DNA of 32,000 nt from Microcystis aeruginosa NIES-843 (lineage in GTDB: Bacteria > Cyanobacteriota > Cyanobacteriia > Cyanobacteriales > Microcystaceae), in the NCBI RefSeq assembly GCF_000010625.1, contig NC_010296.1:2850001-2882000 (forward strand). The letters are read 5' to 3'. The translations under genes were made by a program, and so were the position numbers. The notes beneath the pieces are model-generated. The model was not told where the DNA came from, made no database searches, and saw nothing but the letters and a program-made list of their open reading frames with translations. The stretch's first letter is position 1. Every line of letters begins with the position of its first letter. Shown in pieces: positions 8,852 to 32,000 of the stretch.

Positions 8852-10651
8852 TTAAAAATTACCGTGATTTTGGATGGCACTTTCTAATTTTGCCACCACT
8901 TCCTCGACGCTAATTACCCCTAAATCGCCCGTGGCACGGGTGCGAATACTTAAACTATTACTTTCCATTTCTTTTGCCCCCACCACTGCCATCACGGGGA
9001 TTTTTGCGGTTTCAGCATTGCGAATCATTTTACCCAAACGTTCGCCACTGGTATCGGTTTCGGCGCGAATTCCTAACAATTGCATTTTCGCTGTCACCTC
9101 TTTAGCGTAATCCAATTGAGTATCACTAACCGGTAATAATCGTATCTGGACAGGGGCTAACCAAAGAGGAAAATCCCCCGCGTATTCTTCGATTAAAATA
9201 CCGATTAAACGTTCCAAAGAACCAAAAGGTGCGCGATGAATCATCACCGGACGTTTACGATTACCATCTTCGGCAACATATTCTAGTTCAAAACGTTCGG
9301 GTAAATTATAATCTACCTGTACCGTTCCTAACTGCCATTCTCTTTCGAGGGCATCTTGGAAAATAAAGTCTAATTTTGGACCATAAAAAGCCGCTTCTCC
9401 GGGGGCTTCAAAATAATCCATCCCCAAAGTTTGCACCGCTTTTCTAATCGCTGATTGTGCCTTTTCCCAAGCTTCATCGGAACCGATATACTTATCCGAT
9501 TCGGGGTCACGAAAACTCAATCGCGCCTTAAAATTCTTTAATTGTAAACTCTTAAACACCGTCAAAATTAAATCAACAACGCTTAAAAATTCCTTGTCTA
9601 ATTGTTCGGGAGTGACAAACAAATGGGAATCATCGACGGTAAAACCGCGAACTCTAGTTAACCCCCCCAATTCTCCCGATTGTTCGTAACGATAAACTGT
9701 CCCGAATTCTGCCAGACGCATCGGCAATTCCCGATAGGATCTCAAATCACTTTTATAGATTTGAATATGAAAAGGACAGTTCATCGGTTTGAGGACAAAT
9801 CCTATTTCTTTACCAGCAGATTCCTCATCGTCTGCCATCATGGGAAACATATCTTCTTTGTACTTTTGCCAGTGACCGGAAATTTTAAACAAATCCACGC
9901 GAGCAATATGGGGAGTAACTACGGGTAAATAACCGCGTTTTAACTGTTCTTTTTTGAGAAAATCTTCTAACAAAGAACGAATTAAAGTTCCTTTGGGGGT
10001 CCATAAAGGCAACCCCGGCCCGACAGAATCAGAGAAAATAAATAAACCTAATTCTTTGCCTAATTTGCGATGGTCTCGTTTCAGTGCTTCTTCCTTGCGG
10101 CGCTTGTATTCGGCTAATTGTTGGGGATTTTCCCAAGCTGTGCCGTAAATGCGCTGTAATTGGGCTTTATTCTCATCCCCACGCCAATAAGCACCCGCTA
10201 CCGTCTCTAATTCGATCGCTTTTGGGTCTAGTTCGCTTGTATTATCTAGGTGCGGACCGGCGCACAAATCCCACCAAGCGTCACCAAGATGATAAAGGGT
10301 GATGGGTTCTTGAATTCCCGCCAGAATTTCCAGCTTATAGACCTCATTAATCGCTTTAATGCGCTTTTCCGCTTCTTCCCGAGAAACTTGCTCGCGAATC
10401 ACCGGCAGTTTTTTATTGATAATTTTGACCATCTCTTTTTTGATGTCCTTGAGATCCTTATCGGTAAAAGGTTCCGGCACATCAAAATCGTAGTAAAATC
10501 CGGTTTCAGTCCAAGGTCCGATAGTAACTTGGGCTTTTGGGAATAATTTTTGCACCGCCATGGCCATCACATGGGAGGTGGTGTGACGAATGCGCTTGAG
10601 GTGGTCGGATTCGCTGGTTTTCGGTAGTTTAATCGGGGCTTGGTTATCCAT
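8852..10651 (-). CDS. thrS: Threonyl-tRNA synthetase, paralog 1 (no upstream Fur/Zur-type box seen)
   Basis: 599 aa. Editing-domain motifs are HTTSH and WWDLCAGPH. Catalytic Zn-ligand contexts are MNCPFH, FTVDDSH and MIHRA. An anticodon-binding domain is present and there is no TGS domain. Confidence 0.95.
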   Translation of the reverse strand: MDNQAPIKLPKTSESDHLKRIRHTTSHVMAMAVQKLFPKAQVTIGPWTETGFYYDFDVPEPFTDKDLKDIKKEMVKIINKKLPVIREQVSREEAEKRIKAINEVYKLEILAGIQEPITLYHLGDAWWDLCAGPHLDNTSELDPKAIELETVAGAYWRGDENKAQLQRIYGTAWENPQQLAEYKRRKEEALKRDHRKLGKELGLFIFSDSVGPGLPLWTPKGTLIRSLLEDFLKKEQLKRGYLPVVTPHIARVDLFKISGHWQKYKEDMFPMMADDEESAGKEIGFVLKPMNCPFHIQIYKSDLRSYRELPMRLAEFGTVYRYEQSGELGGLTRVRGFTVDDSHLFVTPEQLDKEFLSVVDLILTVFKSLQLKNFKARLSFRDPESDKYIGSDEAWEKAQSAIRKAVQTLGMDYFEAPGEAAFYGPKLDFIFQDALEREWQLGTVQVDYNLPERFELEYVAEDGNRKRPVMIHRAPFGSLERLIGILIEEYAGDFPLWLAPVQIRLLPVSDTQLDYAKEVTAKMQLLGIRAETDTSGERLGKMIRNAETAKIPVMAVVGAKEMESNSLSIRTRATGDLGVISVEEVVAKLESAIQNHGNF

Positions 10652-10785: not shown

Positions 10786-11706
10786 ATGAAAAAACTAATT
10801 TTATCCTGTTTATTTTTGGGATTGGTTGCTTGTAATGATGCGGTTAATACCACCGATAACCAAAAACCTAAGGTAATCTCCACTAGCACAATTATCGCCG
10901 ATTTAACCGCACGAGTAGGCGGTGAAGAAATTGACCATCAAGACATTTTAAAACCAGGGGATGATCCCCACGTTTATGAACCAGTTCCCGCCGATAGTGT
11001 GGCTTTAGAAAAAGCCGATTTAATTCTCTATAACGGTTATAATCTCGAACCGGGGTTAATTAAAATGATCGATTCTACGGCAGTTAAAGCGAAAAAAGTG
11101 GCTGTGGGAGAAGCCATTACACCTTTACAACTGGAAAAAGAAGGGCAGAAAGTACCCGATCCCCATGTTTGGGGTTCGGCAAAAAATGGCATAATCATGG
11201 TGAAAAAAATCCGAGATCAATTGATTGAATTAAGTCCCGAAGATAAAGAGATTTTTACTGAAAATGCCGCCCAATTAATCAGGGAATTAGAAAATCTTGA
11301 TCGCTGGATTACTGCGGCTATTAAAACTATCCCCCCTTCCCAAAGGCAATTAGTCACCACTCATGACGCTTTTCAGTATTATGCTCATGCCTATGGTTTA
11401 AAAGTTGCAGGAACTTTAATTGGCATTAGTACCGAAGAACAACCTAGCGCCCAAACGGTGAAAAATTTAGCCGATGCTATTAAAAATCTCCAGGTTCCTG
11501 CTATCTTTGCCGAGACCACTATTAATCCCGCTTTAATTACCACTGTAGCCGAAGAAGCGGGGGTAAAATTAGCACCAAAACAATTATATTCTGATTCGAT
11601 CGGCGCGGTGGGTACTAGGGGGGATAGTTATGTAAAAATGCTCAGGGAAAATACTCGCTCGATCGTGGAATCTTTAGGGGGAAAAGTACCTCAAGAAGGT
11701 CAATAG
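10786..11706 (+). CDS. Metal ABC transporter substrate-binding lipoprotein (ZnuA/TroA/MntC cluster A-I family)
   Basis: 306 aa with lipobox LGLVAC. Ligand contexts are DPHVYEP, DPHVWGS, THDAFQYY and YSDSIG. It has no His-rich loop, and no cognate permease or ATPase gene is adjacent. Confidence 0.85.
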   Translation: MKKLILSCLFLGLVACNDAVNTTDNQKPKVISTSTIIADLTARVGGEEIDHQDILKPGDDPHVYEPVPADSVALEKADLILYNGYNLEPGLIKMIDSTAVKAKKVAVGEAITPLQLEKEGQKVPDPHVWGSAKNGIIMVKKIRDQLIELSPEDKEIFTENAAQLIRELENLDRWITAAIKTIPPSQRQLVTTHDAFQYYAHAYGLKVAGTLIGISTEEQPSAQTVKNLADAIKNLQVPAIFAETTINPALITTVAEEAGVKLAPKQLYSDSIGAVGTRGDSYVKMLRENTRSIVESLGGKVPQEGQ

Positions 11707-12008: not shown

Positions 12009-13112
12009 TTATTTCCCAAATCCTTTACCGCGATTGACAGCAGGTAAAATGAGACAACTGTTAATCTGTTCTTTTAGGGTTTCATGATCGAGATTTTGAC
12101 CGATAAGAACTAGCTGATTTTTGGGAGTACCTTTCCATTCGTCATCTTCGAGAGTAAAACGTTTGCCACTGAGGTGAAAAATATGACGTTTAGGACTTTC
12201 ATCAAACCAGAGAATACCCTTAGCGCGGAAAACGCTTTCCGGTAACTGATTATCGAGGAAATATTGGAACTTCCGAATCGAAAAAGGTTGGTCACTAGCA
12301 AAGGAAATAGAAGTAAATCCATCCACCTCTAAATGATTGGAATGGTCGTGATGATCATGATCGTGATCGTGGTGGTGATCATGGTCGTGATCATGATCGC
12401 AATGGTCGTGATCGTGGTCGTGGTGATCATGGTCGTGGTGTTCTTCTTCTGTGTCGAAATATTTATCCGATTCAAATAGTCCGACGCTGAGAATTAAGGG
12501 TAAAGGAACCTGACTTTTGCTAGTACGAAGAATTCTCGCTCCTTGCTTCATGTCCCGGATTCTTATTTCTAAAGAATCCACATCCGCTTCATCCACTAGA
12601 TCGGTTTTATTGAGAACAATAATATCACCGTAGGTGATTTGACTTAAGGCCGCTTGCGAGTTGAATAAATCGAGACTAAAATTGGCACAATCCACCATAG
12701 TGACAATGGAATCTAAACGGGTCATTTCCCGTAATTCTGTACCTAAAAAGGTTAAAGCTACCGGTAAAGGATCGGCTAATCCCGTGGTTTCTACGACTAA
12801 ATAATCGATTTTTTCGGGACGTTCGAGAATTTTATAAACTGCTTGAATTAAATCCTCGTTGATCGTGCAGCAAATACAGCCATTATTTAATTCTACCATG
12901 CTGTCATCACTACTGATAATCAGTTCATTATCGATACCGATTTCACCGAATTCATTGACAAGAACAGCAGTTTTTAATCCCTGTTGATTGCTGAGAATAT
13001 GATTGAGGAGAGTAGTCTTACCACTACCAAGAAACCCAGTAATAATTGTTACCGGTAGCCCTTTTTTTGGCACTGACATCGTGTTAATAGCTTGTGATTC
13101 GACGGTTTGCAT
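12009..13112 (-). CDS. COG0523-family metallochaperone GTPase (CobW/ZigA/YeiR-like) with His/Asp-rich tract
   Basis: 367 aa. Motifs are P-loop GFLGSGKTT, GCICC, ETTGLADP and LNKTD, plus a CobW_C-like C-terminus. A 36-residue tract, HHDHDHHDHDHDHCDHDHDHDHHHDHDHDHHDHSNH, lies at residues 225-260. Confidence 0.92.
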   Translation of the reverse strand: MQTVESQAINTMSVPKKGLPVTIITGFLGSGKTTLLNHILSNQQGLKTAVLVNEFGEIGIDNELIISSDDSMVELNNGCICCTINEDLIQAVYKILERPEKIDYLVVETTGLADPLPVALTFLGTELREMTRLDSIVTMVDCANFSLDLFNSQAALSQITYGDIIVLNKTDLVDEADVDSLEIRIRDMKQGARILRTSKSQVPLPLILSVGLFESDKYFDTEEEHHDHDHHDHDHDHCDHDHDHDHHHDHDHDHHDHSNHLEVDGFTSISFASDQPFSIRKFQYFLDNQLPESVFRAKGILWFDESPKRHIFHLSGKRFTLEDDEWKGTPKNQLVLIGQNLDHETLKEQINSCLILPAVNRGKGFGK

Positions 13113-16583: not shown

Positions 16584-17195
16584 TTAGCTAATCATCGCCA
16601 ATAAACCTTGATAAAAAATCTGAAAACTAGGAGAACAATTATGAGCAGGAGTCATAAATTGAGAAATTTCTCGGGCTGCTTTCACTTTTTCTAAACCTCC
16701 TCGATGATACCCAGCTTTTTGAAGTATCTTTTCTAAGTTTTCCCAAGTTCCCCCCGTAATTTCATCGGGTTTTCTGTATTTTGCTTGCTGTCCCACATTA
16801 GTAGAAACTTTGGGATAGGCTGAGACTATAGCCTGAATATCACCAAAAAACCAAGCTTCTAGTTCTTCTATAGCAATTCTATTTAACACCTGAAATGTTT
16901 TTTTATCTTCACTAATCGTTTTGGTGATCAGTCCTGTTTGTTGGGCAATATTTTCTAACTTTTCTTTGAGCATTTGACAATCTTCATTGTCTCTATCTAC
17001 AAGAATAATGATTCGATAATCATCGGGTATCCAGCATTGATAGCCTTTTAATCGCTCCGGTAGTTTTTTGATTAAATCGGATTTACCTCGAAAGGCATGA
17101 ATTTTATAGGTGACATTCTCAAATAATATTTTAGGTAAAATTTGATTTAAACATTCTTGGGTAGAAAATTCTTCAACTAAAAATTCAAGATGCAC
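16584..17195 (-). CDS. TOPRIM-like small protein (DUF4276-type), partner of the upstream ATPase
   Basis: 203 aa with a GTG start preceded by AAGGAGGG. It has an N-terminal strand plus acidic pair LVEEFS, then IILVDRDNED (DxD) and IEELEAWFFGD. The family name is from memory and is unverified. Confidence 0.6.
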   Translation of the reverse strand: MHLEFLVEEFSTQECLNQILPKILFENVTYKIHAFRGKSDLIKKLPERLKGYQCWIPDDYRIIILVDRDNEDCQMLKEKLENIAQQTGLITKTISEDKKTFQVLNRIAIEELEAWFFGDIQAIVSAYPKVSTNVGQQAKYRKPDEITGGTWENLEKILQKAGYHRGGLEKVKAAREISQFMTPAHNCSPSFQIFYQGLLAMIS

Positions 17196-17219: not shown

Positions 17220-18407
17220 TTAAATGCTAGGATTACCCACATCAAAATAGTCCTCCATCCATAATTGACCCAACAAAGCACCATTTTGAATAAATTCCTT
17301 AACTCCTTGCATTGCTGAAGTACGTTTAGCTTGAGTAAAACCATTTTCATCTCGATAAAGTACCCAAACCTCCTCTGGTTTCAAACCATCTACAAAAAAG
17401 GGAGAATGAGTTGTTACCATTAATTGTGTACTTGCGGTCGCTGCCCGACATTCTTCTGCTAATTCAGGTAATAAACGGGGATGAAGATGATTTTCTGGTT
17501 CTTCTATTCCCAGTAATTGCGGAGGGCTTGGATCATATAATATAGTTAAATAAGCCAACATTTTTAAAGTGCCATCGGAGGCAAATTTGGCAAGAATTGG
17601 CTCTTGAAAAGGTGCGTCTTTAATTTGAAGTAAAAGCTGTCCATTCGGCATAATAGATGCTTCTACTTTTTCTAATCTGGGAATTCGACGAGAAAGGGTT
17701 TGTAAAATAGATTCTAATCGTTGAGGATGATCTTCTTTTAAATATTGAATAACATTAGGTAAATTGTCACCAGTTGGCGATAATCTTTCTTGCGCTCCTG
17801 CTTCTGGTTGAGTGCGAGTATTATCTGCGGTTAAGTAGGAAAGATACCAACTTGTGATAAAACGACGCAAAGCACTAACCCGGGGATGTTTGGCCAATTG
17901 TCCGAGGGTACTAACAGCTAAAAATTCCGGGGAGTCTAATCGTTCAGAAATTCGTTTATCTTTTGGTTTGGGATTTTCTCCACTAACCACTATTCCTCCC
18001 CCTTCTTTAAAGTCTAAAAAGCGATAAGGTTTGCCCTTCGCTCCTTGTCTCCACTGTAACCATTCTTCGGCAACATAAGGGCGATTGTTAGCTTCATTAA
18101 TAGCCAAATGATAGGTAATTAAAGGTGATGCCAATTTTTCTCGATATTTTAATTCGATAATGATGTAACCTTCTTGTCCTCTGGTTCTTAATTCTTTAAA
18201 TCTTCCCCGTCTGTCCCAAGCTTTTTTTAAACCAACAGTAAAACATTCAGAGAGGAAAGCAAAGACATCAAATATGGTAGATTTTCCGCTCCCATTAGGA
18301 CCGAGAAAAACGGTTAAAGGAGTAATGCTTTTTAATTCTAAGTCCTGTAAAGCTCGGTAATTTTGCACGCGCAGATTTTCGATTCGAGGTATAGAGTTTT
18401 TAGACAT
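17220..18407 (-). CDS. ABC-type AAA ATPase (AAA_15/AAA_21, OLD/AriA/PtuA-like)
   Basis: 395 aa. Walker A is GPNGSGKST, Walker B and D-loop are [13 protein letters not shown], and the H-loop is VTTHSP. A long insert lies between the N and C lobes. Confidence 0.8.
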
Positions 18408-25596: not shown

Positions 25597-25624
25597 TTAG
25601 ACATCAGCCCTCCTTTGCTACAAT
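25597..25624 (+). promoter_or_regulatory. Putative sigma70-type promoter of thrS paralog 2 (-35 TTAGAC, 16-nt spacer, -10 TACAAT)
   Basis: The hexamers are at 25597..25602 and 25619..25624, 27 nt upstream of the ATG. Confidence 0.55.
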
Positions 25625-25639
25625 GATAATCATTATCAT
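25623..25639. promoter_or_regulatory. Fur/Zur-family operator, perfect 17-bp palindrome ATGATAAT-C-ATTATCAT
   Basis: The palindrome is perfect by direct reading. It contains AATGATAATCATTATC, which matches the classical Fur-box core and the 7-1-7 TGATAATNATTATCA type. It overlaps the -10 box. Confidence 0.8.
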
Positions 25640-25650
25640 CGTAGCTGGCA

Positions 25651-27507
25651 ATGGTCAATCAAATTAAGTCCCCCCGAGCAGAAAGCCCCGTTATCGAAGA
25701 AGATTCGCAAAAAATCGTAAAAATACGCCATACTTGCGCCCATATCTTAGCGATGGCTGTACAAACTCTCTTTCCTGAAACCAAAGTCGCTATTGGTCCC
25801 TGGACAGAAACGGGATTCTACTACGATTTCGATCGCCCAACACCCTTTACCCCCGAAGATTTGGAGAAAATAGCGGCAGAAATGGGGCGAATTATCGGGA
25901 AAAACCTGCCAATTATCCGAGAAGTGCTGGAAAGAAGCGAAATTACCGCAGAAATCGAGCGCCTTAATCAACCCTACAAACGGTCAATTTTAGAGAGAAT
26001 TCCCCCAGATGAAACCATTACCCGTTATTTTATCGGTAGTCCGGACGCAGGACGGAGCGATCGAGAACCCTCGTTAATTGATGGTGCTGTTTCTCCCCCG
26101 GAAGAATTTTGGTGGGATCTGTGCGCGGGACCGCATCTCAACTCGACGGGGGAAATTAACCCCGATGCTTTCGCCTTGGAGAGTGTAGCGGGTGCTTATT
26201 GGCAAGGAGATGAAAAACAGCCGCAATTACAGCGAATTTACGGCACAGCTTGGCAAACCCCCGCAGAATTACAAAATTATCTCCAACAAAAAGAAGAAGC
26301 GCAGCGACGAGATCATCGCAAATTGGGACAACAATTAAAATTATTTAGCATCCAAGAAGATGCAGGTGGAGGCTTAGTTTTTTGGCATCCCCGGGGTGCA
26401 ACAATGCGTTATTTAATCGAAGATTATTGGCGCCAAGCTCATTTAGAAGCGGGTTATCAATTTCTTTATACTCCCCATCTAGCTAATTTAGATTTGTGGA
26501 AAACTTCCGGACATTGGGACTTTTATCGCGACAATATGTTTGAGGCGATCGAGTTAGAACAGCAAAGCTATCAAATTAAGCCGATGAATTGTCCTTTTCA
26601 TGTTTTAACCTATCAAAATGACCTGCATTCCTATCGAGAATTTCCCCTCAGATGGGCAGAATTAGGCACAGTTTATCGTTACGAGCGATCGGGGGTTTTA
26701 CACGGATTAATGCGGGTGCGAGGATTTACTCAAGATGATGCTCATATTTTCTGTTTACCAGAACAAATTGCCGCAGAGATTCTAGGAGTTTTGAACTTAA
26801 CCGAGAAAATTCTCTCCGATTTTGGCTTTACTAATTATCAGATAAATTTATCGACTCGCCCCAGTAAATCCGTGGGTAGTGATAGTGTTTGGGAATTGGC
26901 AACGGCGGCTCTAATTGAGGCCTTAAATGCTAAAAAGTGGGATTATATTGAGGATCAGGGAGGTGGGGCTTTTTATGGTCCGAAAATTGATATAAAAATT
27001 CAAGATGCGATCGGTAGAATGTGGCAATGTTCCACGATTCAGGTCGATTTTAACTTGCCAGAACGCTTTGATATGCAATATGTCGCTAGGGATGGTACTC
27101 GGGAAAGACCGATTATGATTCATCGAGCTATTTTTGGCTCTTTGGAAAGATTTTTTGGCATTTTAATCGAGAATTATGCGGGAGATTTTCCTCTCTGGTT
27201 AGCACCTATTCAAGTCCGTTTATTACCCGTTAGTGATGAACAGCAGCATTATGCTTTAGGGGTGGCAATGCAGTTAAAACAAGCTGGTTATCGAGTGGAA
27301 ATCGATAAAACTGGTGAGCGTTTAGGTAAACAAATTCGTACAGGAGAACTAGAAAAAATCCCTGTCTTAGCTGTGATTGGAAAACGAGAAGTTAGCAGTA
27401 AAACTCTAAGTGTTCGCACTCGACAAGGGGGAGATTTAGGTTCGATGACGCTGGTAGATTTATTAGGAAAAATGCAAACAGCGATCCTATCTAAAACTAA
27501 TCTCTGA
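25651..27507 (+). CDS. thrS: Threonyl-tRNA synthetase, paralog 2 (operator-controlled)
   Basis: 618 aa. It has HTCAH, WWDLCAGPH, MNCPFH, FTQDDAH and MIHRA. It is collinear with paralog 1 except for a ~22-aa insertion before WWDLC. Confidence 0.95.
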   Translation: MVNQIKSPRAESPVIEEDSQKIVKIRHTCAHILAMAVQTLFPETKVAIGPWTETGFYYDFDRPTPFTPEDLEKIAAEMGRIIGKNLPIIREVLERSEITAEIERLNQPYKRSILERIPPDETITRYFIGSPDAGRSDREPSLIDGAVSPPEEFWWDLCAGPHLNSTGEINPDAFALESVAGAYWQGDEKQPQLQRIYGTAWQTPAELQNYLQQKEEAQRRDHRKLGQQLKLFSIQEDAGGGLVFWHPRGATMRYLIEDYWRQAHLEAGYQFLYTPHLANLDLWKTSGHWDFYRDNMFEAIELEQQSYQIKPMNCPFHVLTYQNDLHSYREFPLRWAELGTVYRYERSGVLHGLMRVRGFTQDDAHIFCLPEQIAAEILGVLNLTEKILSDFGFTNYQINLSTRPSKSVGSDSVWELATAALIEALNAKKWDYIEDQGGGAFYGPKIDIKIQDAIGRMWQCSTIQVDFNLPERFDMQYVARDGTRERPIMIHRAIFGSLERFFGILIENYAGDFPLWLAPIQVRLLPVSDEQQHYALGVAMQLKQAGYRVEIDKTGERLGKQIRTGELEKIPVLAVIGKREVSSKTLSVRTRQGGDLGSMTLVDLLGKMQTAILSKTNL

Positions 27508-27620: not shown

Positions 27621-28652
27621 ATGAGTTCTTTGATAATTCCTCTCTCCGATTCTCTCCCTTGCTTGCCTAAATCGGGAATGCCTGTGACGATCATTACTGG
27701 TTTTTTAGGGAGTGGAAAAACCACCTTACTAAATCATATTCTTGACAATAAAGAAGGGTTAAAAGTTGCCGTATTAGTCAATGAGTTTGGGGATATTAAT
27801 ATTGATTCTCAATTGCTTGTTTCCATCGATGAAGATATGGTAGAATTGAGTAATGGCTGTATTTGTTGTACAATTAATGATAGTTTAATTGAGACAGTCT
27901 ATCAGGTCTTAGAAAAAGAAATACCCGTGGACTATCTAATCATTGAAACCACAGGATTAGCCGATCCTTTGCCAATTATCCTCACTTTCCTGGCCACGGA
28001 ATTAAAATATCTGACTCGCTTAGATTCTATTATTACCCTCGTGGATTCTGAAACCTTTACGGCGGATCATTTTGATAGTAACATTGCCCTTAGTCAAATT
28101 CGTTATGGTGACGTGGTAATTCTCAATAAAATAGATCGAGTCAGTGGCAAAAAATTAGATGATTTAGAAAAGTTTATTCGTCGAGAAAAAGAGGGTATAA
28201 GACTCCTAAAAAGTAGTTATGGTCAGGTTCCTTTGGGTTTATTGTTAGATTTAGGTTTAACTAAAGAAGAATTGTATAAAAACCAATTTAGAGACTTTCA
28301 AAAAAATCGCCAAAGCTCCAGTGATAATCAATCTCCTGAAGACTTTAATTTTGTCTCTTTTGTTAGCAATAAACCATTTAATCTAGATAAATTTGAACCT
28401 TTTCTCACGGAAAAAATGCCGATGAATGTTTTTCGAGCAAAAGGGATTCTCTGGTTTCAACAAAGCGATTTAAAACATATTTTTCAATTGAGCGGTCTCC
28501 GTTACGATCTGCAAGCGGTAGAATGGGATACATCTCCTCAGAATCAGTTAGTTTTTATCGGCAGAAATTTAAATAAAGAGGAAATCTTGACACAACTAAA
28601 CGAATGCTTGGCTAGTTCTCAAAAAATTAAAAAGGACAAACTAAGTAGGTAG
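27621..28652 (+). CDS. COG0523-family metallochaperone GTPase (no His-rich tract)
   Basis: 343 aa with GFLGSGKTT, GCICC, ETTGLADP and LNKID, plus a CobW_C-like C-terminus. It lies 113 nt after thrS paralog 2 with no terminator seen. The last codons and the stop lie in a MITE terminus. Confidence 0.92.
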   Translation: MSSLIIPLSDSLPCLPKSGMPVTIITGFLGSGKTTLLNHILDNKEGLKVAVLVNEFGDINIDSQLLVSIDEDMVELSNGCICCTINDSLIETVYQVLEKEIPVDYLIIETTGLADPLPIILTFLATELKYLTRLDSIITLVDSETFTADHFDSNIALSQIRYGDVVILNKIDRVSGKKLDDLEKFIRREKEGIRLLKSSYGQVPLGLLLDLGLTKEELYKNQFRDFQKNRQSSSDNQSPEDFNFVSFVSNKPFNLDKFEPFLTEKMPMNVFRAKGILWFQQSDLKHIFQLSGLRYDLQAVEWDTSPQNQLVFIGRNLNKEEILTQLNECLASSQKIKKDKLSR

Positions 28653-28739
28653 GTGTTAAAAGTTTTCAGACACCCCCCCCTTATTAAGGGGGGATTAAGG
28701 GGGGGACTAAGGGGGGATCGGCACCCCCCTTATCAAGGG
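28642..28739 (-). mobile_element. MITE copy D, left portion (interrupted by an IS)
   Basis: The terminus TAAGTAGGTAGGTGTTAAAAG and G/C-tract modules are present. The copy is broken after CCCCTTATCAAGGG. Confidence 0.8.
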
Positions 28740-30157
28740 TAGGGCTGTTTCATTCTCCCATCAGAATATCAAAAGTAAAAGCGATCAATATCAGGTAAAA
28801 TGATAAGTGACCGCCAACCTTTTAAATATATGTTGAGCTTAATAGAAAAACTGAAACAAGTCAAGGACTTTCGGAAAGATAAAGGAAAAAGACACCCTTT
28901 ATGGATAGTATTAGTAGTAATAATACTGGGAACAATGCTAGGATACTCAGGTTATAGAGAACTAGGAGAGTTTGCTAAAAATAATCGGCACAGGCTCAGT
29001 AAAGAATTTAACATAATTCCAGAAAGAGTCCCATCCTATTCAACAATTAGAAGGGTAATGATGGGAGTTGACTGGCAGAGTTTGTTAAAAATGTTTAATG
29101 AATGGGCATTAGAAGAATATGGACAAAGAGATGATATAAATTGGCTAGGTATGGATGGAAAAAGTCTCAAAAACACCCTAAAGAATCCTAATAATGAACA
29201 ACAAAATTTTATCATGTTTGTCTCATTGTTTAGTCAAGAAAGTGGATTAGTATTACACTTAAAAAGAATCGAAAACAAAAAAGGGTCTGAAATCGACGAA
29301 GGGCAAGCTATAATTGAGGATTGCTCTCTCCAAAATAAAGTTTTTACTGGCGATGCTTTACACTGTCAGAAAAAAACAATCAGCTTAATAGCCAAGAGTA
29401 AAAATGACTATGTTATCACCGTTAAAGGAAATCAGAAAAATCTTTATAAGCGAATACAAGACCTGAGTAATTCCTCAAAGCCAGAAAGTTGCTTTCTTGA
29501 ACAAGATAATAGTCATGGACGAAAAATATCAAGAAAAATAGAAGTTTTTAAAGTGAGAAAAAATGAAAGACAAGGGTTTGAAAATCTGCGAAGAGTTATT
29601 AAAGTAGAAAGAAAGGGTAGTCGCGGGGATAAAACCTATGAAGAAACAGCTTACTATATCAGTAGCCTAACCGAATCCGCTCAAGTATTTGCTAAAATTA
29701 TTCGAGGACATTGGAAAATAGAAAATCAGTTACATTGGGTAAAAGATGTAATTTTTGAGGAAGATAAAAGCGAGATAAGTGATTTTCAAGCGGCCAGCAA
29801 TTGGTCAATTCTCACAACTATAGGATTGAATCTTTTCAGAGGTTTGGGTTTTCTCTCAATAACAGAGGGACAGAGGTGGTTAGCTGAACGTTGGGAAAAA
29901 CTGATAGTTTTATCGACGTAAGAAGCAGAAAAATTAGCTAAATTAACAGGATGTACTCTCAGACAATTTCAAGAAAGATAGGCTTTTAGTGGCTTGGAAA
30001 CAGGCTTTATCAATTTATTCATAATCAATATTGGCAGAGGATTAAAGATTAGTTATTGTCACTAACTCTTTTGATTAGAAAAAGATAAACTTGAGAATTT
30101 TCATTCAAATTTATTGACTCAAAATCAGCTGTAATTAATTTAAATGAAACAGCCCTA
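28740..30157 (+). mobile_element. ISAs1-family insertion sequence (1418 bp)
   Basis: Terminal inverted repeats are TAGGGCTGTTTCAT at 28740 and ATGAAACAGCCCTA ending at 30157. The flanking duplication lies within CCCTTATCAAGGG. Its length is ambiguous at 7-13 bp because the target is palindromic. Confidence 0.85.
28800..29921 (+). CDS. ISAs1-family (H-repeat-associated) transposase
   Basis: 373 aa. It has N-terminal DFRKDKGKRHPLWIVLVVIILGTMLGYSGYRELGEFA and C-terminal RGHWKIENQLHWVKDVIFEED, both typical of ISAs1. Confidence 0.9.
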   Translation: MISDRQPFKYMLSLIEKLKQVKDFRKDKGKRHPLWIVLVVIILGTMLGYSGYRELGEFAKNNRHRLSKEFNIIPERVPSYSTIRRVMMGVDWQSLLKMFNEWALEEYGQRDDINWLGMDGKSLKNTLKNPNNEQQNFIMFVSLFSQESGLVLHLKRIENKKGSEIDEGQAIIEDCSLQNKVFTGDALHCQKKTISLIAKSKNDYVITVKGNQKNLYKRIQDLSNSSKPESCFLEQDNSHGRKISRKIEVFKVRKNERQGFENLRRVIKVERKGSRGDKTYEETAYYISSLTESAQVFAKIIRGHWKIENQLHWVKDVIFEEDKSEISDFQAASNWSILTTIGLNLFRGLGFLSITEGQRWLAERWEKLIVLST

Positions 30158-30227
30158 CCCTTATCAAGGGGGGCAGGGGGATCGAACCTAAAATCCATTT
30201 TTAATTTAATTATAACCAGCTACTTAT
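30158..30227 (-). mobile_element. MITE copy D, right portion
   Basis: The sequence continues CCCTTATCAAGGGGGGCAGGGGGATCG... through TAATTTAATTATAACCAGCTACTTAT. It matches the outer end of copy B. Confidence 0.8.
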
Positions 30228-30537
30228 GAATAATTTATGGATAAAAACTTTAAAATTTAACGAACCCTCGATCCCATGGTTTTACATCTCTTTGTTCTCC
30301 AAGTTCATTATCGCAAACCCTTGCACTTTACGGAAGCGGCGATCGATTAAGGGAACAATTAAAAACGAGGGGAATTACCTTAGTTGATTTACCCGATGGA
30401 CAAAGCCAATGGTATCCTAGAGAAAAGAGCCATAACCATGATTAATATCCCAAGAAACCGCCAATTTTTCCCAAAATAACCTGGCTAAGTCTAGAGGATT
30501 GGTTAAGGAAGATTACTTGCCCCAATCTGACTTATGC

Positions 30538-30557
30538 TAGAATGATTATCATTATCA
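30538..30557. promoter_or_regulatory. Second Fur/Zur-family operator (TGATTATCATTATCA) overlapping a -10 hexamer TAGAAT
   Basis: The 22-mer TGCTAGAATGATTATCATTATCA differs at only 2 positions from TGCTACAATGATAATCATTATCA upstream of thrS paralog 2. Confidence 0.75.
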
Positions 30558-30574: not shown

Positions 30575-31354
30575 ATGATTATCGTGGTAACGGGGGGTAT
30601 AGCAGCGGGAAAAACCCACTGGATTCGCGAACAAATCGCCAAACAGACGCAGCCAAGTCTATATTTTAGTCCCCAGACGGAAACTTTTCCCATTGATCGC
30701 CTCACTTTAGAGAGTGACTTTCCCCAGTTGTCCTGTGTTTCTAGGGAAGAAGAAGACCTTTTGAGCAGTTTATCCATGGAAAACACGATCTATATGGAAG
30801 TACCATGGCATTTAGACACGCAATCCCTCGAAAGCTTTCTAAAACCCCTCAATTGTCATCGGGTAGCGATTACGTCTCCAGAAGCAGAAATCCCCGAAGG
30901 ACAAGTGCCCGTCGATGAAATTGTCTTCAGTCCCGTCAAAACAACCATAAAAGGCGATCAATGGTTAAAAAAACGAGAAATACAGATTTATAGAGCCGTT
31001 TTAACGGGAGAAGTCCTCGATTTTTCCAGTTTAACTACCTTTTGGACAGAATTAACCCAAGGGGCCTATGGGGAAGTGCTGCGGGTTAAAAGTATCTTCG
31101 ATATCATCGATGGTCAGTGTATTTATGGGGAATTTATGGATGAATGGCCAGAAAAAGACTTTCAAAGCTTAAATTTCCCCTTAAATCTCGATGGGAGACC
31201 GAATCGCTTTAGTGGGATTGAAATCGTCGGTCGCAATCTCGATAAACCGACAATTGCCGATACCCTGAGTGATTGTTGTCTGTCCGATGAGGCACTTTTG
31301 TATTATCAACAACAATTTCAAGAATCTTTAGAGCCAGAAATGGATTTAATCTGA
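30575..31354 (+). CDS. Degenerate COG0523-like P-loop protein lacking the CxCC motif
   Basis: ATG 30575 is preceded by GAAGGAG. The track start at 30542 would place the operator inside the CDS. The N-terminus is IIVVTGGIAAGKT, and CobW_C-like segments are GEVLRVKSIFDI and IEIVGRNLDKPTI. There is no GCxCC and no NKxD. Confidence 0.6.
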   Translation: MIIVVTGGIAAGKTHWIREQIAKQTQPSLYFSPQTETFPIDRLTLESDFPQLSCVSREEEDLLSSLSMENTIYMEVPWHLDTQSLESFLKPLNCHRVAITSPEAEIPEGQVPVDEIVFSPVKTTIKGDQWLKKREIQIYRAVLTGEVLDFSSLTTFWTELTQGAYGEVLRVKSIFDIIDGQCIYGEFMDEWPEKDFQSLNFPLNLDGRPNRFSGIEIVGRNLDKPTIADTLSDCCLSDEALLYYQQQFQESLEPEMDLI

Positions 31355-32000
31355 TGAAAATAGCCGTTTTATCCTGTATTCATGGCAATATGCCCGCTTT
31401 TAATGCTGTTTTGCGAGATTTAGGCCAACAGGGTTGTCAAGAAATCTACTGTTTAGGGGATTTGGTTGGGTATGGACCCCATCCTAACCAAGTGGTGGAA
31501 AAAATCCGTCAACTGGGTATTACCACGGTACAAGGGTGTTGGGATGAGGATATCGTTGAGGGATTAAATGCCTGTGAGTGCAGTTATCCGTCGCTTTTAG
31601 CAGAAAAACGGGGTAGATTAGCTCATGAGTGGACAAATCAAATAATTACCTCGGAAAACCGTAATTATTTGTCAAAACTGCCCGAAATTTTTAAGCTAGA
31701 TCACCTCTGTTTTGTCCATGGTAGTCCCCAAAGTAACCATGAGTACCTTTTAGCCGAAATGGACGCTTTTACGGCTTTAGAACGGGTTTTATCGGTAGAT
31801 ACAGAGGTTTTATTCTGTGGACATACCCACATCCCCTACATTCGCACTCTCGACGCGGGAAGCTTGCAAATAAAAGTGTATCAACCCGATGGGGAACAGT
31901 CGCGGCAATTTACCACACCGGTTAAACGTATCATCAACGTGGGATCGGTGGGAGAACCGCGTCACGGTCGTCCAAATGCCACCTATGTGATTTACGATCG
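31354..32000 (+). CDS. Metallophosphoesterase (Metallophos_2 / YfcE-MJ0936-like), partial, with Cys-substituted metal motifs
   Basis: The ATG overlaps the upstream stop (TGATG). The translation is MKIAVLSCIHGN...CLGDLVGYGP...VQGCWDED...FVHGSP...CGHTHIPY...NVGSVGEPRHG. The frame is open to the window end, so it is absent from the ORF track. Confidence 0.8.
   Translation, partial: MKIAVLSCIHGNMPAFNAVLRDLGQQGCQEIYCLGDLVGYGPHPNQVVEKIRQLGITTVQGCWDEDIVEGLNACECSYPSLLAEKRGRLAHEWTNQIITSENRNYLSKLPEIFKLDHLCFVHGSPQSNHEYLLAEMDAFTALERVLSVDTEVLFCGHTHIPYIRTLDAGSLQIKVYQPDGEQSRQFTTPVKRIINVGSVGEPRHGRPNATYVIYD

Follow-up and report, generated by a model that had tools for sequence, protein, structure and literature searches.

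The DNA analysed here (the window: 32,000 nucleotides of Microcystis aeruginosa NIES-843, contig NC_010296.1, positions 2,850,001 to 2,882,000) ends within a gene for a metallophosphoesterase (MPE) that carries cysteines where the superfamily has metal ligands. An earlier note, made from the letters alone, had proposed that four clustered thiols alter this site, and that the gene lies behind a COG0523-like gene (here gene X) under a Fur/Zur-type operator, which would link it to metal scarcity. The question raised by this locus is whether the protein, hereafter Cys-MPE, is still an enzyme or a phosphoesterase scaffold put to another use. Our analysis favours, with a probability of about one in two, the first answer: a still-catalytic dinuclear hydrolase, predicted from sequence to carry one thiolate per metal, to be metallated at low zinc and to be expressed under Zur repression, with X and a downstream MPE-like protein, MPE2, as partners.

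Translation of positions 31354 to 32000 reads MKIAVLSCIHGN... and contains QGCWDED, NACECSYP, GDLVGYG, FVHGSP and CGHTH; the motifs on which the note had relied (SCIHGN, GCWD, GDLVGYG, FVHGSP, GHTH and NACECSYP) were thus read accurately. Proteins of Microcystis spp. are 98-99% identical to Cys-MPE, the closest full-length homolog being P0001 (269 residues, 98% identical), and the M. aeruginosa homologs of X are 93-94% identical to X. By fold and by profile, Cys-MPE is a member of the MPE superfamily: it matches the Pfam families PF12850 (Metallophos_2; E-value 1e-19, 71-74 bits against a cut-off of 27) and PF00149 (Metallophos; 37-38 bits against a cut-off of 21.5). Of the five motifs that define the superfamily, II, IV and V are canonical, and two, I and III, are altered (Table 1). 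In the alignment to the closest solved structure (3rqz, E-value 2.5e-25), SCIHGN falls over SDVHAN and QGCWDE over IGNHDW, and an alignment of 151 sequences, canonical relatives included, gives the same register for Cys8, Cys62 and Trp63. Since the two alignments agree, Cys8 is assigned to the Asp position of the DxH motif, and Cys62 and Trp63 to the Asn and His positions of GNH, respectively, as the note had supposed.

Substitutions of this kind could be neutral or degenerate, the mark of a decaying enzyme with no special metal chemistry, and MPE2 shows that ligand loss does happen in the same gene family. Conservation speaks against this explanation. In the cyanobacterial set, made up of the 120 top-ranking cluster representatives, which are 67-98% identical and, where named, come from cyanobacteria, Cys8, His10, Asn12, Asp36, Cys62, Trp63, Asp64, Cys74, Cys76, His91, His122, His129, Cys155, His157, His159 and His204 are conserved in 120 of 120 sequences, and the C-terminal His265 and Cys267 in all 118 of the 118 that have the tail. 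Identity across cyanobacterial orders is 70-80%, and a scan of one genome per species found a relative in at least 531 species. A second clade, 39-45% identical to the cyanobacterial cluster, carries the same exchanges. Among its 120 representatives, obtained by a dedicated search, Cys8 is present in 111 of 111 non-gapped sequences, Cys62, Trp63, Cys74 and Cys76 in 119 of 120, and His204 and Cys155 in 111 of 120 each, and a CxC forms the final three residues in 118 of 120. The named members of this clade (Sorangium, Polyangiaceae, Pseudobacteriovorax and Kiloniellales) belong to Myxococcota, Oligoflexia and Alphaproteobacteria. The variant, whose spread the note had left to be established, is thus found in 120/120 cyanobacterial representatives and in a second clade. 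Invariance in both clades rules out chance or a pseudogene as the origin of the cysteines, and neutral decay, with cysteines invariant in the 120 cyanobacterial and about 119 of the 120 second-clade representatives, appears effectively refuted by conservation and is a very improbable explanation.

The wider family was covered by an exhaustive search over 1.8 billion representatives at 50% identity, the best 150 of which were sorted into three classes. Class i (102 of the best 150) is canonical and 3rqz-like, with Asp8, Asn62, His63 and Asp204, about 240 residues and no insertion. Class ii (16 of the best 150) is intermediate, with Asp8, Asn62, Tyr63 and the CxC insertion, and without the C-terminal extension. 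Class iii is the Cys class, with Cys8, Cys62, Trp63 and CxC, and comprises the cyanobacterial cluster and the second clade. In the 151-sequence alignment, too, the CxC insertion is absent from canonical relatives and present in class ii. Because class ii has CxC alone, the CxC pair is separable from Cys8 and Cys62, and these two co-vary with Trp63, His204 and the C-terminal (H/C)xC. The view of the four cysteines as a single co-evolving unit is therefore ruled out by relatives that keep Asp8 and Asn62 next to a CxC. The full signature of the Cys class is C-x-H...GD...G-C-W-D...C-x-C...H...C-G-H-x-H...P-R-H-G...(H/C)-x-C, the last element at the C-terminus; the conservation of Cys155, the change to His204 and the C-terminal tail are features that the note had not recorded. 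Class ii members include P0132, P0140 and P0150, and they carry the same insertion, here reading CGC.

An AlphaFold2 model of Cys-MPE, built on a 150-sequence alignment, has a mean predicted local distance difference test score (pLDDT) of 92.6 and a predicted template modelling score of 0.89, confidence falling only in the CxC loop (73 at residues 71-80) and in the tail (57 at residues 261-269). A Foldseek search of the PDB with this model returned 3rqz at the top, followed by SapH (Spr1479, 3qfm; TM-score 0.72-0.78), an asymmetric diadenosine tetraphosphate (Ap4A) hydrolase and phosphodiesterase of Streptococcus pneumoniae. Further matches are Pyrococcus 1nnw and 2gju, then YfcE, MJ0936, Vps29, lambda phosphatase and PP1. 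Two family memberships were rejected. For the YfcE family, the scores lie below the cut-offs of TIGR00040 (28.4 bits against 56.25) and PRK09453 (44.2 bits against 117). For Dbr1, the eukaryotic RNA lariat debranching enzyme, only Cys-x-His is common; motif III differs, Cys-MPE has 269 residues, and Dbr1 is outside the top 50 fold matches.

In the established ligand scheme of the superfamily, motif I supplies an Asp and a His to metal one, motifs III and IV supply an Asn and a His, respectively, to metal two, and of the two His residues of motif V the second goes to metal one and the first to metal two, while the Asp of motif II bridges the metals. On the basis of this scheme and of the alignment, site 1 of Cys-MPE would be formed by Cys8, His10, the bridging Asp36 and His159, and site 2 by Asp36, Cys62, His122 and His157, so that Cys8 would go to one metal and Cys62 to the other. 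Several lines of evidence argue for retained catalysis over a dead scaffold. Each of the seven ligand positions carries an invariant side chain of a metal-binding kind; outside the ligand set, the residues of the active site (Asn12, Tyr40, Asp64, Tyr131, Asn195 and the GSVG-P motif) are common to Cys-MPE and its canonical relatives; sequence conservation is extreme; and the dead scaffold of the operon, MPE2, looks quite different. In addition, active precedents, Dbr1 for CxH and SapH for GNW, argue against an outright loss of catalysis. These cover the oddities one at a time; we know of no precedent for Cys at the Asn position of motif III, nor for thiolates on both metals.

Taken as an enzyme, Cys-MPE would be a dinuclear MPE of the ApaH/SapH/YfcE-like branch in which one ligand per metal has been changed to a thiolate. 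Thiolates favour Zn2+, Fe2+, Co2+ and Ni2+ over Mn2+ and Mg2+ and raise affinity. The exchange would shift the preference of the site from Mn2+/Mg2+ to thiophilic Zn2+ or Fe2+, possibly Co2+/Ni2+, raise its affinity, and permit metallation even at very low buffered zinc. The protein would be made from a promoter under Zur repression, as one element of the zinc-starvation response, and be translationally coupled to X, with X as a probable loading or partner protein and MPE2 as a probable non-catalytic partner; the flexible C-terminal (H/C)xC tail, and perhaps also the CxC loop, could serve as a metal-capture or transfer arm. At scarce zinc it might either hold zinc very tightly or use Fe2+ instead. 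The former is what PMC4787780 proposes for the co-regulated T2 threonyl-tRNA synthetase (ThrRS), in a model in which T2 stays dimeric and active at scarce zinc and the housekeeping T1 releases zinc and dissociates. As for the substrate, SapH is the nearest characterised relative, and our guess, by analogy, is an Ap4A-like or other nucleotide phosphoester. Dihydroneopterin triphosphate is a further candidate worth testing, because folE frequently neighbours Cys-MPE (24 of 80 loci).

The cysteines could instead build an iron-sulfur (Fe-S) cluster or a redox-sensitive site, which would make the protein an Fe-S or redox-switched phosphoesterase. At least five invariant cysteines (8, 62, 74, 76 and 155) plus a C-terminal Cys or Cys pair would be available for this purpose, and neither the CxC loop nor the tail is well ordered in the absence of a cofactor. 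However, the His and Asp ligands of the dinuclear site are all invariant, which would be needless if a cluster replaced the metals; the cyanobacterial tail has His, not Cys, at one position; CxC occurs without the other cysteines in class ii; and the genomic context is one of zinc (Zur box, ZnuA and COG0523), not of Fe-S assembly. We therefore consider this explanation improbable.

The zinc context starts in the window itself, which contains only two matches to the palindrome TGATAATNATTATCA at two or fewer mismatches. One is TGATTATCATTATCA in front of X, so that the Fur/Zur-type operator proposed for the gene pair stands; the other precedes a ThrRS gene. A -10-like TAGAAT, read by eye at 30538-30543, overlaps the operator of X, and a consensus promoter scan called no sigma-70 promoter at this site. 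The true start of X is likely ATG 30575, which is preceded by the ribosome-binding site GAGAAGGAG and opens the conserved N-terminus MIIVVTGG, and not ATG 30542 of the open reading frame finder, all but the first base of which lies inside the operator. At the other end of the gene, the X stop codon overlaps the Cys-MPE start (TGATG, 31352-31356). Across 76 loci, one per species, the 250 nt in front of X hold a Zur-type box, defined by 12 or more of 14 matches, in 74% of cases; random windows drawn from these loci reach 3.3%, and shuffles 0.5%. No box stands before X where hemB2 or folE closely precedes it; a box upstream of the first gene would fit one operon in these cases, and none was sought there.

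The assignment of X to COG0523 depended on structure prediction and fold search, because sequence searches gave little. The window protein has no Pfam match, hence none to the Pfam cobW domain, its sequence profile finds nothing significant in the PDB, and BLASTP against the COG0523 protein of the window returns only two short colinear matches, at the P-loop and at an IGRNL segment. An AlphaFold2 model of X (pLDDT 88.5), in turn, has E. coli YjiA (4ixm and 1nij; E-value 5e-7, over the whole length) as its only significant PDB matches. Moreover, 'G3E family GTPase' and 'GTP-binding protein' are the names given to X homologs, several of which match PF07683 (CobW_C). On its modelled fold, X is thus a predicted degenerate COG0523-like protein, and the label that the note had given to the upstream gene is upheld by homolog names, CobW_C matches and fold. 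Within the P-loop, G12 and K13 are invariant and T14 nearly so, whereas the X alignment contains no CxCC motif and no invariant Cys, only Cys235 in the C-terminal part being nearly invariant. X diverges much faster than Cys-MPE (35-60% identity against 70-80%).

The conservation of this arrangement was assessed in 80 species-level cyanobacterial loci. X lies directly upstream of Cys-MPE in 75 of the 78 that have enough flank. MPE2 is found downstream on the same strand in 65 of 76 loci, in 43 of them at most 600 nt away; in Microcystis it begins 24 nt past the Cys-MPE stop, beyond window position 32000 (locus L008:10832-11530; in other loci L001:10665-11366 and L003:9005-9754). MPE2 has about 233 residues, is 32% identical to Cys-MPE (E-value 7e-28) and gave no Pfam match even at an E-value of 0.1. 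Most of its ligands are lost (motif I reads SGIQGN, motif III GWWEE and motif V CGRAG), only the motif II Asp and the motif IV His being still in place. Judged by its sequence, MPE2 is a conserved pseudo-enzyme, and it is likely a partner of Cys-MPE.

At least one of the genes for COG0523, folE, hemB (ALAD), thrS and znuA occurs in the fetched stretch of 59 of the 80 loci. In Gloeothece PCC 7424 the operon order is hemB2, X, MPE, COG0523, folE, MPE2, and on Trichormus plasmid A the order is thrS, DUF1636, COG0523, methyltransferase, hisI, a hypothetical gene, X, MPE, MPE2. On a plasmid of Picosynechococcus PCC 7117, a gene for a flavin adenine dinucleotide (FAD) protein on the minus strand is followed by X, MPE and MPE2 on the plus strand and by folE and hemB on the minus strand. 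A perfect box (L168:6044-6058) lies in the divergent promoter between the FAD/NAD(P)-binding gene and X, a weaker one at the hemB start (L168:10518-10532), and 67 nt separate X from MPE.

The positions of the PCC 7117 boxes match the Zur-regulated genes reported in Synechococcus PCC 7002. In that strain, both a zur mutation and N,N,N',N'-tetrakis(2-pyridylmethyl)ethylenediamine (TPEN) induce the pAQ7 cluster of hemB-II, folE-II, G0131 and G0132, and G0131 is described as 'similar to GTPases' (PMC4628125); therefore, G0131 is the X homolog. For G0129 ('phosphoesterase, with homologs in other cyanobacteria') and G0130, the same study reported no induction in the zur mutant. The only direct expression data thus support Zur control of X and are negative or unclear for MPE in Synechococcus 7002. 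Our literature search combining Zur or zinc limitation with metallophosphoesterase found no paper studying Cys-MPE, and the gene goes unmentioned in the Synechocystis Zur paper; a 'phosphoesterase' of the cluster is named by Ludwig 2015 alone.

In the second clade the surroundings are again those of metal homeostasis, with other partners. No X or MPE2 was detectable at these loci. Regulators of the Fur family, COG0523 (as one or two genes), ZnuABC, TonB-dependent receptors and a PyrC-like gene make up the neighbourhood. MPE is also accompanied by a FeoB-like gene with FeoB_N/MMR_HSR1 and Gate domains: in three loci (L086:8803-10566, L097:3520-5262 and L166:7869-9521) this gene abuts or overlaps MPE on the downstream side, in L089 (6760-7911) it is upstream, in L095 it is about 1.2 kb away, and at locus L098 it was not detected. 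The product may be a zinc-regulated FeoB-type transporter. The gene occupies the place where FeoA usually sits. At the loci of two class ii proteins with Asp/Asn and CxC (L165 and L167), no metal-homeostasis neighbours were found; because of this, it is the thiolate substitutions, rather than the CxC pair, that track the zinc-starvation context. The link of Cys-MPE to metal scarcity, as first suggested, is strongly backed by the gene neighbourhoods in two deep clades.

The same neighbourhoods also bear on an explanation without catalysis, in which the MPE scaffold has been repurposed as a metal-handling module for thiolate-rich binding, buffering or transfer of zinc or another metal, working with X (in the second clade, with the FeoB-like transporter) and passing metal on through its CxC/HxC tail. 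Up to six extra conserved Cys and His residues are present besides the five canonical ligands, in 118 of 120 representatives of the second clade CxC is the very end of the flexible tail, and the coupling to a gene for a P-loop nucleoside triphosphatase (X in cyanobacteria, FeoB-like in the second clade) is constant. Such a tail recalls those of metallochaperones. In addition, the general-acid His is lost, and the adjacent MPE2, clearly non-catalytic, indicates that the fold is used non-enzymatically in the same operon. On the other hand, the non-ligand catalytic and substrate-binding residues are kept as in canonical enzymes, SapH and Dbr1 are active with Trp and Cys, respectively, at the positions in question, and storing zinc during zinc starvation makes little sense. 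We regard this module as possible, though unlikely.

The preferred reading, a still-catalytic hydrolase, has to be held against several observations that weigh against it. With Trp63, the general-acid His of motif III is lost. Paralogs of the Zur regulon usually lose cysteines and do not gain them. A zinc-requiring enzyme induced at zinc starvation would add to the zinc demand; the CxC pair, Cys155, His204 and the C-terminal tail could constitute a different kind of metal site; and the reported failure of G0129 and G0130 to respond in the zur mutant, although X did (PMC4628125), counts here as well.

A bolder and still more doubtful idea is that X, Cys-MPE and MPE2 together form a dedicated metal-allocation device, in which Cys-MPE is either a client of a COG0523-type chaperone or itself a metal-transfer or sensing protein; in other phyla, the device would consist of Fur/Zur, Cys-MPE and the FeoB-like transporter. 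Were the client version true, Cys-MPE would be the first identified client of a COG0523-type chaperone in cyanobacteria, and its thiolate-substituted dinuclear site, together with the C-terminal CxC arm, would take up Zn or Fe available only at sub-picomolar levels. Under the alternative version, it would be a metal-transfer or metal-sensing protein and not an ordinary hydrolase.

The ThrRS gene (thrS) with its perfect box and the COG0523 gene behind it (Table 1) look like the zinc-starvation thrS2-COG0523 unit of Anabaena, an arrangement that is Zur-repressed there (PMC4787780). In NIES-843 an insertion sequence (IS) element splits this unit from the X-MPE unit, whereas the gap between COG0523 and X in other Microcystis genomes is only about 435-535 nt (L005-L010). 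Because X keeps its own operator, its regulation is probably unaffected by the IS element. In total, the window holds two ThrRS paralogs and two COG0523 genes; the second ThrRS is 51% identical to the first, has a tRNA_SAD domain and is neighboured by a ZnuA-family binding protein and the second COG0523 gene. Elsewhere, a DUF4276 gene (16584-17195, minus strand) adjoins a gene for an AAA_21 AbiEii/OLD-like ATPase (17220-18407, minus strand), a pair that may be a defence or toxin-antitoxin-type module, unrelated to Cys-MPE.

Table 1. Features of the X-MPE unit and of its surroundings, in window coordinates.
Feature	Position	Strand	Remark
Zur/Fur-type palindromic operator TGATTATCATTATCA, one mismatch to TGATAATNATTATCA	30543-30557		18 nt upstream of X start codon
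Gene X, 259 residues, predicted short degenerate COG0523/G3E-like P-loop protein	30575-31354	+	
Cys-variant MPE, residues 1-215 of about 269	31354-32000	+	cut by window end
Motif I, Cys8-Ile9-His10, replaces Asp-x-His; His10 kept	31375-31383	+	alignment register, 120/120
Motif II, Gly35-Asp36 (bridging Asp)	31456-31461	+	canonical, invariant
Motif III, Gly61-Cys62-Trp63-Asp64, replaces Gly-Asn-His-Asp/Glu	31534-31545	+	alignment register
CxC pair Cys74-Glu75-Cys76, in 7-residue insertion after motif III	31573-31581	+	invariant; pLDDT 73
Motif IV, His122	31717-31719	+	canonical, invariant
Motif V, Cys155-Gly-His157-Thr-His159	31816-31830	+	canonical GHxH plus conserved preceding Cys
His204 in GEPRHG	31963-31965	+	Asp here in canonical relatives (GQPRDG)
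Perfect Zur-type box TGATAATCATTATCA	25624-25638		13 nt upstream of thrS
Threonyl-tRNA synthetase gene (thrS)	25651-27507		downstream of perfect Zur-type box
Full COG0523 gene with GCICC	27621-28652		follows thrS
IS element, DDE_Tnp_1 transposase	28800-29921	+	flanks about 28650-30540
Second ThrRS	8852-10651	-	
ZnuA-family binding protein	10786-11706	+	
Second COG0523	12009-13112	-	

The ligand sets of MPEs are among the most conserved in enzymology, and the Cys clade therefore offers a natural experiment in the tuning of first-shell metal selectivity under scarcity: an uncharacterised, widespread group in which one O-donor per metal is replaced by a thiolate, invariantly in more than 500 species and two deep lineages and, at the loci compared, solely among zinc-starvation genes. 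For COG0523-type proteins, few of whose clients are known, the clade supplies a concrete candidate partner or client, and it brings to light MPE2 as an unannotated pseudo-enzyme partner. In addition, Cys-MPE would add a predicted member to the cyanobacterial Zur regulon in a bloom-forming genus.

How far do the proteins of this locus resemble systems already described? X has the two-domain architecture and the P-loop of YjiA and the COG0523 metallochaperone GTPases, and some X homologs the CobW_C domain, but it is about 90 residues shorter and without the CxCC metal motif. Cys-MPE has in common with the Zur-regulon paralogs (thrS2/T2, hemB2, folE2 and COG0523) its operons or neighbourhoods and the operator type. 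These are paralogs of known zinc enzymes, whereas Cys-MPE has no known zinc-dependent counterpart to replace; T2 ThrRS, active at scarce zinc in the model of PMC4787780, is a possible analogy.

Among phosphoesterases, the closest are the uncharacterised MPEs of the 3rqz type (a structural-genomics protein of Sphaerobacter thermophilus) and the wider COG0639 'ApaH/PP2A-like' group, with about 30% identity, a TM-score of 0.73-0.82 and the same GDxVGYGP, VHGSP, GHTH and GSVG-PR-G motifs. Unlike Cys-MPE, they have the canonical Asp8, Asn62, His63 and Asp204, about 240 residues, and neither the CxC insertion nor the (H/C)xC extension. SapH has the same fold and a motif III with Trp (GNWE), and since it is active, an active enzyme tolerates Trp at position 63. 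At 23% identity it differs from Cys-MPE in keeping the Asp of motif I and the Asn of motif III, and in lacking CxC, a Cys-rich tail and a zinc-regulon context.

For the cysteine of motif I, the comparison is with Dbr1, the one well-studied MPE with Cys-x-His for one metal. Its Cys is essential, the C11D mutant keeping only 7% of activity (PMC5113202), and the enzyme, which contains Fe and Zn in stoichiometric amounts, reaches its highest activity with Fe2+ (PMC9202583). Unlike Cys-MPE, Dbr1 is eukaryotic, keeps the Asn-His of motif III and has a lariat-recognition loop and a C-terminal domain. A bacterial protein, P0192 (468 residues), joins a sigma-factor-like N-terminal region to an MPE domain whose motif I has Cys in place of Asp and whose motif III is a canonical GNHE; this is an independent Dbr1-like Cys-x-His swap in bacteria. 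In conclusion, the likeness of Cys-MPE to Dbr1 is a convergent ligand swap, not family membership.

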